Assembly: GCA_013816135.1 (NCBI GenBank)
Contig: JACDEV010000005.1
Coordinates: 28,055-52,054 of the forward strand
Reading direction: 5' to 3'
DNA: 24,000 bases
From: Patescibacteria group bacterium
GTDB lineage: Bacteria > Patescibacteriota > Minisyncoccia > Phycocordibacterales > DATDWN01
The notes under the pieces are model-generated. The model had not been told where the DNA came from. It searched no databases and saw nothing but the letters and a program-made list of their open reading frames with translations. The stretch's first letter is position 1. Each line of letters starts with the position of its first letter. Of this stretch, positions 9,904 to 13,982 are shown in pieces. The translations under genes and the position numbers were made by a program.

Positions 9904-10313
9904 AATTTGTAAAAAAGAACGCGTGCAGTCTGAGTCTTTGGCACAGCAAGTGTTGGCCACCTCCTTCAGAAGAAATTTAGCCCTCGCCTAGCGACTCAAT
10001 GACTCCTTTTTCTGGAGCCGTGCGCTTTTGCCTAAGCGCTTATGGTCCTCGAGCTTCTGCACAAGCTTGGACACGGTTGGTTGGGAAGAGTACCGCGCCA
10101 TTTTGTCGAGATGCACAGTGGAGTAATTACTCCAGCGCCATCTAGGGCGTTATTCTTCCCATCAAAGCTTTTAAATAATTTTAAAAATTTTGATGGAAAC
10201 CGAATCTCGTAAGATTCGGAACTTTTGACCGCCAAAGTTAAAGGAGTGTTCGCATTAAAGCCCAACACAGAAGGCCTCGGGTCGTCGGGCAAGGAACCGA
10301 CTCACCGGATAGA

Positions 10314-10703
10314 TCACTTCACATTGGTTGTCGCGCATTGTGCGACCGGCGGTTTGAACGCCTTGACCTTTGTGGGGAGCTTGGGAAGCTCCGCGGTAAC
10401 CGGTTTTATGACCGCGACTTTCTCGGCTTTTTGCTGCCGGTACTTGTCTATCAACTTATCTGCTTCCTCGGGAGAGGAAACGTCTTGTGACAAGTTGATA
10501 TCACGTTCTGTGTTCAGACTCGACATGCAGGCACCTTCACTTACTTTGCCGACATTCATGACGAGCTTGTAGCCGTTGTCCTGCTTCCAGAGACTGTAAA
10601 CAATCTCATTATCGCAGTAGTGCCGGACTGGCGATTTGAATTCTGCGCAGCCGACGAGAGTCACGAGCGAGAACAGCACGACGATACGCATGATCATCTT
10701 CAT
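10314..10703 (-). CDS. Putative lipoprotein (129 aa from ATG at 10703)
   Basis: N-terminus MKMIMRIVVLFSLVTLVGC has a clear lipobox (LVGC). G+C is visibly higher than in flanking host genes. The track ORF starts 2 codons earlier at a GTG (10709). Confidence 0.7.
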   Translation of the reverse strand: MKMIMRIVVLFSLVTLVGCAEFKSPVRHYCDNEIVYSLWKQDNGYKLVMNVGKVSEGACMSSLNTERDINLSQDVSSPEEADKLIDKYRQQKAEKVAVIKPVTAELPKLPTKVKAFKPPVAQCATTNVK

Positions 10704-10720
10704 AAGCACACAAGCTCCAA

Positions 10721-10807
10721 AAGAACATTAGGGAATCATTTCCCTTAAAAATAAATTATCGAAATAATTTCCTTTTAAGGAATCCCGAGGAAATTGATTC
10801 CTCAGGG
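10721..10807 (-). promoter_or_regulatory. Promoter/5'UTR module A (duplicate of module B)
   Basis: Minus strand reads: imperfect hairpin CCCTGAGGAA..TTCCTCGGG, then TTCCTT-N16-GATAAT, then TTTTTAAGGGAAATGATTCCCTAATGTTCTTT. It has the same CCTTAAAA...TTTAAGG inverted pair and the AATGTTCTTT leader as module B. Confidence 0.45.
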
Positions 10808-11130
10808 CAGAGTTTTTTCACAAACACTCTCCGAAGTTATGGCAGTCTGGGGGCTCAACCCCAGTTGAGACGCGTCTGGTAATGAGCCAGTCCGCATTCT
10901 CTTTGAGTGAGGCATCTGCAGTGTTGCGAGCATCGGCTCGCATAAGCCCTTTGGGCTCCACATCAAATGCTATGTCGTTTGAGCACGACATCTCCCCTCT
11001 CACCCCGGTACAAGGGGTTCAATTTGAAAGTGGAAATGGCGTCTGCAACACCTACCCCTTTCTCTCGAATTACTAAATTAATAATGCGAGAGAAAGGGAC
11101 AGGTTACTTCGGTTTATTTTAAAAGAACTA

Positions 11131-11188
11131 GATTCTGTTTCGTCCTTTTGGACTCATCAGGCAAAGCTTCACTTTGCGACAGTACCAG
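11131..11188 (-). ncRNA. Hammerhead ribozyme, type III topology (HHR1); predicted cleavage after GUC, between plus coords 11178 and 11177
   Basis: Minus strand: cugguacuGUC|GCAAAG-UGAAG-CUUUGC-CUGAUGA-GUCC-AAAA-GGAC-GAAA-CAGaauc. All invariant core nucleotides (C3-A9, G12-A14, A15.1:U16.1) are present. Stem I is 6 bp, stem II is 4 bp with G10.1:C11.1, and the open stem III is ACAG/CUGU plus 3 further pairs after an A.A mismatch. Confidence 0.85.
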
Positions 11189-12379
11189 TTTTGCGTTCTG
11201 GTAAACGTTCGGGAACTTCCCAAAAAAGAACAAAAGTGGAACAGCGTAAGGTCAAAAACTGTTCCGAGAGTAGATTGCGTTCAGGTGACCCCGAACTCCA
11301 ACCACCGATTTGCGATCGGTTCTACCCTTTTAACCACAACCTATGTCCTTTTGAGACGACTGGTTGCCCGCCTTATCCACCAAGAGCTTATTGCGATTCA
11401 TGCTGGCCGGCACTTCACGCATGAGAAGGGCTTATTCTTCTCTCCCTCTGACGAGGTCCGGCTCTACGCTCTTGGTTTTCCCCCAACTTTGCCTTCGCAA
11501 ATTTTTCAATTTGCGACTGCACTGTGCCGGTAATGGGAGAGGCATTTGCTAAGAACCTTGCGAGTCCTCAGCTGAGCCACCGACTTTCCAACCTTTCAGG
11601 TGTTTGGCGCACTATCTGGAGTTAACCAGATAACTTTTCGGAGTGTCACCTCCTAAAGCCTGTTCGGTCGTCTTACTCTCATAGCATCGCCAAACGCTAT
11701 GATCATACCTGGCTGAAAGTCCTCGGGTTTGGAAAACCCTACTTTCAACCAAACATGTGGAGATTTGGATTCTATCTTTCGATAGTACCCCGCCTCGGTC
11801 GTGCTAACCGAGACAAATCGTCTATTGCTAGACTATCAGGCTCTCCATGGCCACGTTATTGAATCCGAATGTCAGATTCAATAACGTGGCCACAGAATGT
11901 TTTCAAAAATATCCTTTTTCGCTCTTTTGAGCTCATCAGCAGAGATACACATCTCTGAAAAGAGTCCTTAAGGGGGACCAGGCCAATCGATATGGCTATT
12001 CTGGGTTGCCAACCAATGTGTTTTACTAGAACTAATTTATTCTAGTAACTTCCAAGATTATTCTAAGTGGATTGATATAGTGAGACACATTTCTATGCTT
12101 TTTCTTCCGTGGCTAGGTAAGAAAAGTTGGGTAAATCAAGTGGTTTGGCTAACCACTAACCCAAAGCTCCATTGAGCCATGAAATTGTCCACACTTTCTG
12201 CTATATCATTTTCCCAAAGAATTTAATCAAGGAAGCACATTCTCGAGTTTGCAATCTTAATAAGATTGGCTCGAGCTCTAAAGTATTTAGTTAATGCACA
12301 ACCATTCTCCTTCTATATTTCCAATGAACATTTATCTGTTTCGTCCTTTTGGACTCATCAGGCAAAGCACACACTTTGC
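11178..12379 (-). ncRNA. 1202-nt hairpin-dense non-coding RNA delimited by the HHR3 and HHR1 cleavage sites (subdivided 422 + 780 nt by HHR2)
   Basis: No minus-strand ORF of 60 aa or more. Many perfect local stems. GNRA tetraloops occur only when read on the minus strand (CGCAAAUU-GAAA-AAUUUGCG at 11496-11515; CUAUC-GAAA-GAUAG at 11772-11785). G+C is elevated relative to the host genes. Confidence 0.5.
11911..11966 (-). ncRNA. Hammerhead ribozyme, type III topology, divergent copy (HHR2); predicted cleavage between 11958 and 11957
   Basis: Minus strand: ggacucUUU|CAGAGAU-GUGU-AUCUCUG-CUGAUGA-GCUC-AAAA-GAGC-GAAA-AAGGau. The core is intact. Stem I and stem II sequences differ from HHR1/3 but keep pairing (compensatory changes). 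The cleavage triplet would be UUU, which is allowed as NUH but typically weak. Confidence 0.7.
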
Positions 12380-12386
12380 AACAAGG
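12333..12386 (-). ncRNA. Hammerhead ribozyme, type III topology (HHR3); predicted cleavage after GUU, between 12380 and 12379
   Basis: Minus strand: ccuuGUU|GCAAAG-UGUGUG-CUUUGC-CUGAUGA-GUCC-AAAA-GGAC-GAAA-CAGaua. It is nearly identical to HHR1 except for loop 1 and H17 (U instead of C). Confidence 0.8.
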
Positions 12387-12743
12387 CCGTTAAGGTGGCC
12401 AGCCTGATTTTTTGTGACTCGGGAATCAACCGAGTATGCATTTTCTGTTCCCAGGACTGCGATAACATCCCGGCGGACTTATTGCTAAGCTTTTGGCTTA
12501 ACAATTTCCAAGACAGATCCCGTGGGAAGGAGATAGTGCAGAATTTCGCACCCATCCTCCATTCCACACGCAATCAGCTTGGAACCGCGGAGAGCCTTTA
12601 ATAGGTCTCTCATTTTATTTAGGAACTTTCGCTCCCACCTCGGGGCCCTGCGCAACTAATTTGTGCGAACTGGGCTCACCAAGTGGAAGCAAAAGTTATG
12701 TTGTCAAAAGTCTTTGACTCCTTCCCTAATCGCTTCTGGGGAG

Positions 12744-12772
12744 AGTATATACTAACTCACTTATTTTGTCAA
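12744..12772 (-). promoter_or_regulatory. Sigma70-type promoter TTGACA-N17-TATACT driving the hammerhead-containing transcript
   Basis: Minus strand TTGACA is plus 12767-12772 and TATACT is plus 12744-12749, followed by CTCCCCAGAAG. This gives a leader of about 360 nt before the HHR3 cleavage site. Confidence 0.5.
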
Positions 12773-12918
12773 CTACTTTTGACATTTATTATCATTATAA
12801 ATATAAAATAGCCCTAAATAAGGCTATATAATCATAATTTTAATATAATTAAGTCTGACTAAATATTAATAAAATTGACTATTATTTTTATTATTATATA
12901 AATTAGTTTTAATTCTGC

Positions 12919-12946
12919 TTGACATATATAACAGTAGGTGTATACT
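12919..12946 (+). promoter_or_regulatory. Sigma70-type promoter TTGACA-N16-TATACT, divergent twin of the 12744-12772 promoter
   Basis: TTGACA at 12919-12924 and TATACT at 12941-12946, followed by CTCCCACAGAGG. The -10 box and initial transcribed sequence nearly match the minus-strand promoter (TATACTCTCCC[C/A]CAGA). Confidence 0.55.
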
Positions 12947-12952
12947 CTCCCA

Positions 12953-13242
12953 CAGAGGTTCCCAATATGCATGACGAGTGACGGCTTCTCCTGCCTGGGC
13001 AAAAGCAATGTGCTTATGTTGCAGGCAGGAGATGAGTCGACCACAAATCATGATTATATAAACTGCGTAGACGTCAAAAGAGAGAAAAGCAATGCGAAGC
13101 AAGTGCAGTTCACGAGGAGAAAGACAATGCAGGATGATTAACGGCTAGATTCGCTCATAAACAAGCAAAAAGCTTGTTAAGATCGGATCCATCAAAGGCT
13201 CGTCTGGAATTTATTCCGGACGAGCCTTCTTCTTATTTTTTT
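12953..13242 (+). ncRNA. Candidate ~290-nt small RNA (promoter-to-terminator unit), unknown class
   Basis: It is bounded by the 12919 promoter and the 13196-13242 terminator, and no plus-strand gene follows. It contains a perfect 10-bp stem CTCCTGCCTG...CAGGCAGGAG (12989-13032) and AACAAGC-AAAAA-GCTTGTT (13160-13178). A 56-aa ORF from ATG at 12971 cannot be excluded. Confidence 0.4.
13196..13242 (+). terminator. Rho-independent terminator; right boundary of the island; its T-tract overlaps the 3' end of the convergent TrmB gene
   Basis: AAGGCTCGTCTGG-AATTTATT-CCGGACGAGCCTT (13 pairs: 12 Watson-Crick plus one G.U) followed by CTTCTTATTTTTTT. Confidence 0.7.
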
Positions 13243-13982
13243 AGATTATCAAAAGCTAAGTTGAAAAGACTTTTAAGAGTTTCTGCGAAGTCTTTACTTT
13301 CAATGTAGATAGCTGAGAGTTTTTTTCCTAGAATACTAATTCTTACTTTATCTTTATATATACTCATATCAACATAAAAAGGATATTTACTCTCATCAAC
13401 CTTTAATCTCTTTGTAAGTTCAGTGTCTTCTTTTTGACCTTTTGACCAGTTATACAAAACTTTGGCTTTAATATTTTCATTTTTTCTAACCTTTCTATAT
13501 TTACCAGTTTCTACATCTTTAAATACATCATCAAGTAAATCTTTGGAATATAGTATATACACAGGAGATCCATCAGGATTACTGTCATAAACATCCTCAT
13601 TAATACTGATTATTCCCTCTTTTCCAGAGTAATATTTTACTAGAGGCTTTTCACCCGATTCTCTTTGCAAACTTTTTATTTGAGGAATAATATCTTCAGC
13701 AAATCTATTTTTTAGTTCTCCCAATGCCATTTCTTTCCTTTCAATATAAGTTCTAAGCATCTCCGGGGATTCAGCCATATATTTGGTTTTTTTGTTCTCC
13801 TCAACTTCACTCACTAGACCTTTTTTTGCTAAGGAATCCAATATGGTGTATACAGTTGGGCGTTTTATTTTAGTTTTTTGAGAAAGTTCAACAACTGAGG
13901 CTTGATCTACCTTAATTAATTGTAAGTAAATCGCTGCTTCTTTATCACTTAACCCGGCATCTTCTAGGTATTTTTCAATCAT
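13233..13982 (-). CDS. TrmB-family transcriptional regulator
   Basis: 249 aa. The N-terminal winged-HTH GLSDKEAAIYLQLIKVDQASVVELSQKTKIKRPTVYTILDSLAKKGLV is typical of the TrmB family. Confidence 0.8.
   Translation of the reverse strand: MIEKYLEDAGLSDKEAAIYLQLIKVDQASVVELSQKTKIKRPTVYTILDSLAKKGLVSEVEENKKTKYMAESPEMLRTYIERKEMALGELKNRFAEDIIPQIKSLQRESGEKPLVKYYSGKEGIISINEDVYDSNPDGSPVYILYSKDLLDDVFKDVETGKYRKVRKNENIKAKVLYNWSKGQKEDTELTKRLKVDESKYPFYVDMSIYKDKVRISILGKKLSAIYIESKDFAETLKSLFNLAFDNLKK

Follow-up and report, generated by a model that had tools for sequence, protein, structure and literature searches.

The DNA analyzed here is a 24,000-nucleotide (nt) stretch of a Patescibacteria group bacterium genome (contig JACDEV010000005.1, positions 28,055 to 52,054; hereafter the window). 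It carries three hammerhead ribozymes (HHR1, HHR2, and HHR3) on its minus strand, set among large structured RNAs. In our preferred explanation, to which we assign a probability of about 0.7, the three HHRs lie in one transcript and process a non-coding precursor. This processing would release stable structured RNAs, so that the module between HHR2 and HHR1 (Y), the module downstream of HHR1 (Z), and the leader upstream of HHR3 would exist as RNAs of their own. Hammerheads of this class and their clustering in bacteria are known. What is new is their placement around a conserved locus that encodes large structured RNAs, the Y family among them. A sequence-only reading of the same DNA had recognized the ribozymes and missed that the RNAs between and around them are conserved structured non-coding RNAs.

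As that reading had described, the minus strand contains three type III hammerheads, all with complete cores. Each is built from a stem I hairpin of 7 bp, CUGAUGA, a stem II of 4 bp with an AAAA loop, GAAA, and an open stem III of 4–5 bp (5 bp in HHR2). With the predicted cut marked by a slash, the RNAs read ACUGUC/GCAAAG-UGAAG-CUUUGC CUGAUGA GUCC-AAAA-GGAC GAAA CAG (HHR1), CUUUU/CAGAGAU-GUGU-AUCUCUG CUGAUGA GCUC-AAAA-GAGC GAAA AAGG (HHR2), and UUGUU/GCAAAG-UGUGUG-CUUUGC CUGAUGA GUCC-AAAA-GGAC GAAA CAG (HHR3). The core residues (C3 U4 G5 A6 N7 G8 A9 and G12 A13 A14) are intact in all three copies. Published rules for accepting hammerheads name the core consensus, H17, and pairing at 1.1–2.1, 10.1–11.1, and 15.1–16.1; all of these are found in HHR1–3, together with A15.1–U16.1 in each copy and cleavage sites that follow the N-U-H rule. 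Across the window, the exact core pattern CTGATGAGNNCAAAAGNNCGAAA has three matches, each of them on the minus strand, versus 0.00 expected from shuffles. The minimum-free-energy fold of HHR1 is the hammerhead fold. The cleavage triplets and cut sites (Table 1), as well as the resulting spacing of 422 and 780 nt between cuts, had been predicted correctly. These features are those of active-type hammerhead ribozymes, for which self-cleavage is predicted.

The three copies belong to a large class. A scan with the core pattern over one genome per species found at least 120 loci, and all genome matches listed share the architecture described above. Among the 80 titled records in those matches, about three quarters are from Patescibacteria (Saccharibacteria, Paceibacteria/Parcubacteria, and similar groups). 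In an alignment of 129 distinct HHR copies, 93.5% of the cells are paired, and 721 cells carry double changes, compared with 212±20 in shuffles and 58–137 in slid controls, which bears out the earlier claim that the stems covary. Stem I is 97.3% paired with covariation in all seven pairs, stem II is 99.8% paired, and five of the six stem III pairs covary; the 15.1–16.1 pair is U-A in 125/129 members. A class covariance model (R1) built from the 129 HHRs recognizes exactly three sites in the window, at 61.7–69.6 bits, with the next best site at 11.7 bits; these scores are partly by construction because the training set included the three window copies. At least 120 loci with the class architecture were also found in IMG/VR viral contigs; of 127 cores there, 118 combine H17 with a proper stem I and stem III. 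This makes the class widespread rather than restricted to the candidate phyla radiation (CPR). Its genomic members are mostly intergenic and oriented like the upstream gene, and same-strand clusters of two to four HHRs at 0.2–1.5 kb spacing are common. The contig L122 ends at window position 12339 and L129 starts inside an HHR: the breaks in short-read assemblies fall right on the HHR core, which is repeated. HHR-cluster loci are probably fragmented or under-represented in metagenome assemblies.

A short motif, GUUCUUU, was observed just after HHR1 (11122–11128) and also 3' of HHRs in L001, L003, L050, L070, L083, L101, and other loci. It occurs 3' of 26/136 HHRs, HHR1 included. The motif is complementary, apart from one G-U wobble, to AAAGGAC and AAAGAGC, the sequences formed by loop II plus the 3' strand of stem II in the two stem II variants. 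Judging from this complementarity, such pairing might unfold the ribozyme after cleavage and so act as a switch. The window has 12 GTTCTTT sites, five of which are on the minus strand of the ribozyme operon.

Evidence that the ribozymes bound RNAs, rather than spacers, comes from module Y. Folding z-scores were computed against dinucleotide shuffles. The 780-nt fragment (HHR2 plus Y) has z = -10.3, compared with +0.2 and +0.5 for two coding genes of the window and -2.5 for the open reading frame (ORF) of a small lipoprotein downstream. Between the window and the homologous locus L127, Y is 78.6% identical over 835 columns; the adjacent lipoprotein has 45% protein identity and about 66% DNA identity. 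The pairwise RNAalifold structure has 219 pairs with 24 compensatory double changes and no broken pair. A five-sequence consensus contains 235 pairs with 91.4% of the cells paired, a percentage inflated by the fitting of RNAalifold structures to the sequences, which the controls address and do not remove. In that consensus, 96/235 pairs carry double changes, versus 38.4±4.6 in shuffles (0/500 reach the observed value) and 13–22 in slid controls. A long-range helix (columns 666–674/782–790; ACCAAGAGC/GCUCUUGGU in the window) is 100% paired, and seven of its nine pairs are compensated.

A protein-coding role of Y was considered and rejected. The substitutions have no codon periodicity (50/45/57), indels are of 1, 2, 4, 9, and 10 nt, and tblastx matches occur in all frames. 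The longest same-strand ORFs in the HHR-flanked segments are 18 and 46 aa, and no frame is conserved; an 88-aa gene called in the L127 leader likewise has no counterpart in the window. Known RNAs do not account for Y either. Among the 4227 Rfam families, those other than hammerheads (searched to E = 10 for window positions 10500–13200 and to E = 1 for L127, L011, and L129) gave chance-level matches only, to microRNA, snoRNA, and RAGATH-30 models with E of 0.1 to 6. Models of OLE, GOLLD, ROOL, HEARO, raiA, RNase P, tmRNA, and group I/II introns had no match. By these comparisons, Y is a new family of large structured RNA of about 700–800 nt in a Paceibacteria-like clade.

The locus recurs in other genomes, found via contigs that carry lipoprotein homologs and via close homologs of the TrmB-like gene that lies immediately upstream. 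Homologs of Y are present in four other lineages, in each case after an HHR and with a TrmB-like gene nearby, and in 3/4 of them between two HHRs. L127, which is the same organism as L254 (99.96% identity), has the order TrmB, leader, HHR, 800 nt, HHR, lipoprotein, and its second HHR is only 93 nt before the lipoprotein gene. L256/L257 have the order TrmB, leader, HHR, Y, HHR, Z, ORF. L255 has TrmB, HHR, and Y, followed by an AU hairpin with CUGUUCUUU that replaces the second HHR. In L011/L251 (Candidatus Paceibacterota), a distant Y homolog lies between two HHRs and the TrmB-like gene is 3.2 kb upstream. A further contig, L129, matches Z and the lipoprotein gene at 79.7%. The TrmB-like neighbor is found in L123 as well as in L127, L255, and L256, and HHR3 of the window corresponds to the upstream HHR of L256, L127, L255, and L011. 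When the 3.8-kb region was compared by blastn with 120 HHR-containing genome loci, the matches were limited to the HHRs and about 20 nt of 3' flank. These comparisons suggest an ancestral layout of leader, HHR, Y, HHR, and then the lipoprotein gene with or without a preceding Z.

The segment had been called compositionally foreign in the sequence-only reading, a view that the comparative data do not support. The G+C content is 46–49% over positions 10000–12000 (much of the ORF-poor region plus the lipoprotein ORF) versus about 35% elsewhere, and this elevation goes with very strong RNA structure. Because the same locus stands beside the TrmB-like gene in four other lineages, it looks native and inherited rather than foreign. 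The 1.26 kb described as ORF-free is part of a longer ORF-poor stretch, which extends for about 2.5 kb from 13233 to 10709, between the TrmB-like gene and the lipoprotein ORF.

The upstream HHR varies among these loci. In place of the AAAA loop of stem II, L256 (7609–7680) has a 16-nt insert with its own hairpin and L255 (7948–8014) has 11 nt; in L127 (5931–5990), a C3-to-U change gives a UUGAUGA core. The minus strand of L011 (4730–5267) carries a second, opposite-strand HHR pair around a 402-nt segment with 55% G+C and a possible 103-aa ORF. In L123/L124 (JGI), the lipoprotein homolog comes first and is followed by three HHRs about 1 kb apart (L124:907, 1925, and 2922) that bracket small ORFs of 63, 138, 66, and 84 aa. 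The lipoprotein family is thus tied to HHR clusters in a different order as well.

The modules on either side of Y differ in how far they are conserved. The leader has a folding z-score of -5.7 to -5.8 and homologs in L256 (192 bits), L127/L254, and part of L255; near its 3' end, a stretch of more than 50 nt is almost invariant. Z has z = -9.0; at its start are the GUUCUUU motif and a hairpin of 24 bp (11105–11049). It is 88% identical to its L129 homolog, with 104 common pairs, five double compensations, and none broken; it is also present in L256 (141 bits) and absent in L127. Judged from sequence comparison, the leader, Y, and Z are not spacers but non-coding RNAs that are conserved and extensively base-paired. 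Module X, between HHR3 and HHR2, has z = -3.2 alone and -4.6 with HHR3, and no homolog of it was found by nhmmer or blastn in about 250 loci. In L127 and L256, X is absent and the upstream HHR directly precedes Y. Furthermore, the stem I of HHR3 and HHR1 (GCAAAG/CUUUGC) is that of both L256 HHRs. Given these observations, HHR3 and HHR1 are best read as the two ancestral ribozymes. X plus HHR2 is probably a lineage-specific inserted cassette, the gain of which would explain why this genome has three ribozymes.

From one promoter and the lack of any terminator-like site on the minus strand between it and HHR1, we infer that HHR1–3 share a single minus-strand transcription unit. The -35 and -10 boxes of this promoter, and a palindrome overlapping it (ATGTCAAAAGTAGTTGACA), are kept in L256 and L127. 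The expected transcript contains, in order, the leader, HHR3, X, HHR2, Y, HHR1, Z, an AU-rich hairpin, the lipoprotein ORF, a spacer, a second AU-rich hairpin with GUUCUUU, a 58-aa ORF, a 51-aa ORF, and a terminator. A weak terminator candidate is located at 10745–10730, upstream of the lipoprotein ORF.

In the processing that we favor, transcription would begin at this sigma-70-type promoter, just past the terminator of the TrmB-like gene, and proceed as one unit. Each HHR would fold during or soon after its synthesis and cut 5' of its own stem I. The precursor would thereby be divided into a leader of about 358 nt, a 422-nt RNA (HHR3 plus X), a 780-nt RNA (HHR2 plus Y), and a downstream RNA consisting of HHR1, Z, and the mRNA of the small lipoprotein and two small ORFs. 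The released HHR-led pieces would carry a 5'-OH and a compact hammerhead fold at the 5' end, and the 3' ends made by cleavage would be 2',3'-cyclic phosphates. A weak stem III of 4–5 bp would let the upstream product dissociate, such that the cut would be effectively irreversible. The leader, X, Y, and Z-mRNA pieces would acquire defined and probably nuclease-resistant ends, and the fate of the non-coding RNAs would be uncoupled from that of the downstream mRNA.

Several points weigh against this explanation. The Rfam search that had been proposed as a check gave a divided result. At the gathering score, the whole window has no match, and all three copies fall below the Hammerhead_3 (RF00008) threshold of 48.5 bits. 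In E-value mode, HHR1 matches Hammerhead_3 end to end at 42.7 bits (E = 2.5e-7), HHR2 matches the same family at 24.4 bits (E = 0.037), and the best match of HHR3 is Hammerhead_1 at 22.2 bits (E = 0.037). The UUU triplet of HHR2 is expected to cleave slowly. For HHR2 and HHR3, the nearest-neighbor model favors alternative folds that pair the 5' flank with stem II (-15.7 and -17.2 kcal/mol, respectively, versus -12.1 and -11.6 kcal/mol for the hammerhead fold), and cleavage of these two copies could therefore be partial or regulated. Transcription as one unit, self-cleavage, and product stability are all things that we infer. The paired percentages of Y are subject to the inflation described above. 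X, with no homolog and modest structure, may be functionless. A search of 131 loci with R2, the covariance model for the core of Y, found Y once in each locus already known to carry it and no new homolog. The Y family is real, yet its rarity (five lineages) also counts here.

The low Rfam scores have a ready explanation. The homologous HHRs in L127 and L011 are likewise below the threshold (25–45 bits), so these scores are a limit of the seed model for a short-loop HHR subclass. With Hammerhead_3, the window copies have in common the core (CUGAUGA...GAAA), H17, loops that close stems I and II, and an open stem III; they differ in the short AAAA loop II and the 4-bp stem II, and, taken together with the copies in the homologous loci, they score 24–45 bits relative to the threshold of 48.5. 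Despite massive stem covariation, the class systematically goes unannotated because its scores fall under the Rfam gathering score.

Among the alternatives, the one that survives best, though we consider it unlikely, is circularization of the kind seen in retrozymes. Ligation of an HHR-bounded unit (Y or X plus Y), catalyzed either by the hammerhead once re-formed or by a ligase of the RtcB type, would give a stable circle or the intermediate of a mobile cassette. The layout does resemble that of plant retrozymes and viroid-like circles, in which type III HHRs surround an ORF-free, highly structured and base-paired non-coding RNA of 600–1000 nt (Cervera et al., 2016, PMC4918200; PMC5680766). 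The modules also differ exactly at HHR boundaries (X and HHR2 found here only, Z absent in L127, and the second HHR of L255 replaced), which has the look of cassette exchange. The flanking HHRs of L127, L256, and L011 have a common stem III (CUGUC/GAAACAG), and the 3' end of an excised RNA could pair with its own 5' hammerhead. In the window, this match holds for the unit from HHR3 to HHR1, but the 3' end of the Y fragment (CUGUC) mismatches the stem III strand of HHR2 (GAAAAAGG). Moreover, CUGUC/ACAG is the commonest stem III of the class, so that its sharing may reflect ancestry and not function, and the short stem III helices favor product release. Retrozyme RNA is excised by double self-cleavage, and excision in the present locus is predicted from sequence. 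Retrozymes are multi-copy eukaryotic retroelements with long terminal repeats (LTRs) of about 350 bp, a primer-binding site and polypurine tract, and target-site duplications (PMC4918200), whereas the locus analyzed here has one copy of Y, conserved synteny, and a bacterial promoter, and no reverse transcriptase, LTRs, or target-site duplications were seen in it. The longest direct repeat between its HHR copies (HHR3/HHR1) is 53 nt with 85% identity, compared with about 300–400 bp for LTRs. The occurrence of Y once per locus, at the same syntenic place in five lineages, argues against mobility. In addition, no circular or spliced products were detected from bacterial HHR clusters by Perreault et al. 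(2011, PMC3088659).

Slightly less probable again is ordinary intercistronic mRNA processing, in which the HHRs would only split the cistrons apart or define where the lipoprotein mRNA starts and how stable it is, and the segments between them would be long untranslated regions, cis-regulatory leaders, or decayed gene cassettes that do nothing of their own after release. A cis-regulatory role for the whole leader would overlap with this explanation. It fits the class as a whole, in that most HHRs lie in short intergenic gaps and are oriented like the upstream gene, real small ORFs are flanked in many clusters, and HHRs often precede GUUCUUU, a Shine-Dalgarno sequence, and a start codon. Within the locus, it is consistent with module X, which is weakly structured and has no homolog, and with the 93 nt between the second HHR and the lipoprotein gene in L127. 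However, Y and Z are conserved beyond the neighboring protein, carry many compensatory changes that extend to long-range helices, and have z-scores (-9 to -10) well outside what coding or decayed sequence gives. A genome of roughly the 1-Mb class also retains about 2 kb of such RNA in at least five lineages.

It is very improbable that the motifs are chance resemblances or relics without cleavage activity: the sub-threshold Rfam scores, the UUU triplet of HHR2, the competing folds of HHR2 and HHR3, and the C3-to-U change in L127 would suit it, but the chance expectation for the core pattern is zero, every core position is intact in 3/3 copies, the stems show compensatory changes between copies and across 129 relatives, and the flanking HHRs are positionally conserved in other lineages.

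Release of Y, Z, and the leader by the HHRs remains the explanation that we prefer, and some observations bear on what Y may do. The 780-nt Y fragment contains six copies of the sequence CGCAA versus 0.7 expected (minus-strand positions 11562, 11515, 11395, 11314, 11279, and 11195), three of these in hairpin loops, and the Y homologs contain 5, 5, 3, and 3 copies. CGCAA could be a protein-binding or tertiary-contact motif. Hints to the role of Y are these repeats, the apparent co-transcription with lipoprotein and membrane-protein ORFs, and the constant TrmB/BlaI-like neighbor. The repeated CGCAA loops suggest a protein-binding scaffold; by analogy with OLE RNA, an option is a membrane-associated ribonucleoprotein formed with the co-transcribed small lipoprotein and membrane proteins. 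A bolder proposal, which we hold to be as doubtful as circularization itself, is that Patescibacteria have a so far unrecognized kind of gene whose products are HHR-excised large structured RNAs. Y would be its first family, a circularized scaffold acting with lipoprotein or membrane proteins and a chromosomal counterpart of retrozyme and viroid-like circles. A circular form is proposed because the ends of Y can rebuild a hammerhead in 3/4 of the other lineages.

Bacterial hammerheads have been known since 2011, mostly beside phage genes. The sequence-only reading had regarded a same-strand cluster as out of the ordinary for bacteria. Clustered bacterial HHRs, triple arrangements included, had already been reported by Perreault et al. 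(2011, PMC3088659), with examples from Agrobacterium tumefaciens (a triple HHR at ardA), Clostridium scindens, and Azorhizobium caulinodans, and the architecture is abundant in viral contigs. All of the clustered HHRs tested in that study, triple arrangements among them, cleave in vitro and one arrangement also does so in Escherichia coli; the proposed role was to cut long transcripts into defined units. Those clusters resemble the present one in that two or three HHRs share a strand within about 2 kb. They differ in that they flank protein-coding genes in prophage-like regions, whereas the HHRs described here flank ORF-free covarying RNAs at a syntenic chromosomal locus. Searches of the accessible literature found no description of hammerheads in CPR/Patescibacteria or of HHR-flanked bacterial non-coding RNAs. 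RAGATH motifs, known from bacteria and phages, are similar in being structured RNAs that lie near hammerhead or twister ribozymes (Weinberg et al., 2017, PMC5737381); most of them are small, and the only match in the present data is to RAGATH-30, at chance level.

Large structured RNAs of the OLE, GOLLD, and ROOL type are rare and mechanistically rich. Y resembles these and raiA in its size (600–800 nt), many covarying helices, and narrow lineage range, and it resembles OLE and its oap genes in its apparent co-transcription with small membrane-protein and lipoprotein genes. It differs from all four in being bounded by predicted self-cleaving ribozymes, in its occurrence in Patescibacteria, and in having no Rfam match. 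A covarying family of about 700–800 nt in genome-reduced CPR bacteria would be a good target for studies of structure and function. HHRs that stand around conserved RNAs, and not genes, may also point to a testable role as end-defining processing sites for large structured RNAs, and the finding may bear on the origin of hammerhead-containing viroid-like RNAs in prokaryote-dominated metatranscriptomes.

Strongly folded segments between HHRs are not confined to this locus. In other Patescibacteria, ORF-free inter-HHR segments have z-scores of -5.4 to -12.1 (examples in Table 1), compared with -0.2 to -1.7 for ORF-filled ones. An all-against-all comparison of the non-coding inter-HHR modules found them unrelated to one another and to the window, and a Pfam search of ten inter-HHR ORFs of other loci found no common family and only two P-loop kinases. 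HHR-bounded structured RNAs may thus be a general and diverse feature of Patescibacteria genomes. Since these segments are structured yet unrelated, scanning between paired ribozymes suggests itself as a possibly productive route to new RNAs. Scans for Y itself gave a narrower picture. A metagenome scan with a block common to three Y sequences found four loci, which are the known L011 and L127 organisms plus two chance matches, and scans of viral contigs with two Y-specific patterns found no matches.

Table 1. Features of the hammerhead locus in the window and folded inter-ribozyme segments of other loci.
Feature	Positions	Strand	Remarks
TrmB/BlaI-like winged-helix regulator gene	13233–13982	minus	Pfam TrmB 4.8e-15; immediately upstream of the locus; syntenic marker
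Conserved terminator hairpin of TrmB-like gene	12827–12808	minus	
Sigma-70-type promoter	12772–12744	minus	TTGACA-17 nt-TATACT; 11/12 consensus matches; predicted start near 12737
Leader module	12381–12737	minus	released fragment 12737–12380, about 358 nt; 5' end predicted from promoter
HHR3, type III hammerhead	12332–12391	minus	triplet GUU; predicted cut 12380/12379; class model 65.5 bits
Module X	11970–12331	minus	362 nt; ORF-free, longest same-strand ORF 18 aa
HHR2, type III hammerhead	11910–11969	minus	triplet UUU; predicted cut 11958/11957; class model 69.6 bits
Module Y	11190–11909	minus	720 nt; ORF-free, conserved structured non-coding RNA; fragment 11957–11178, 780 nt
HHR1, type III hammerhead	11131–11189	minus	triplet GUC; predicted cut 11178/11177; class model 61.7 bits
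Module Z	10785–11130	minus	about 345 nt; ORF-free structured RNA, HHR1 to lipoprotein gene
AU-rich hairpin, then AAUGUUCUUU	10719–10780	minus	upstream of lipoprotein ORF
Small lipoprotein-like ORF	10314–10709	minus	129–131 aa; signal peptide, LVGC lipobox
Spacer after lipoprotein ORF	10313–9872	minus	ORF-free, G+C-rich; z = -5.5; partly kept in L129, L130, L256
Second AU-rich hairpin copy	9871–9822	minus	before 58-aa ORF
58-aa membrane-protein ORF	9807–9631	minus	
51-aa ORF	9586–9431	minus	
Bidirectional terminator	9428–9397	minus	strong
Strongly folded ORF-free inter-HHR segments	L047:1604–2481, L047:2542–2865, L104:1426–1748, L104:2754–3255, L107:3948–4217, L064:6212–7507		

The window also carries ordinary housekeeping genes. 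It contains no phage genes, a scan found no tRNA or tmRNA, and searches of phage and plasmid collections in distant mode had no match. The lipoprotein has only five homologs among 5.8 billion proteins (45–62% identity), and neither it nor the other small ORFs of the operon belongs to a Pfam family.

Some smaller features of the operon were also observed. The lipoprotein ORF is preceded by a module consisting of the AU-rich hairpin (CCUUAAAA...UUUUAAGG), (A)UGUUCUUU, a Shine-Dalgarno sequence, and the start codon. The AU-hairpin module also precedes an ORF in L255 (8735–8830) and L129 (340–440). A weak RAGATH-30 match on the plus strand of this hairpin (10745–10793; 19 bits relative to a gathering score of 59.5, E = 1.9) is most likely due to chance. 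At the other end of the operon, the palindrome TGTCAAAAGTAGTTGACA (12784–12768) overlaps the -35 box and is kept in L256 and L127. Together with a second palindrome, GTCAAAGACTTTTGAC (12718–12702), at about +20, it brackets the transcript start. From its position, TGTCAAAAGTAGTTGACA is a candidate operator of the adjacent TrmB/BlaI-like regulator.

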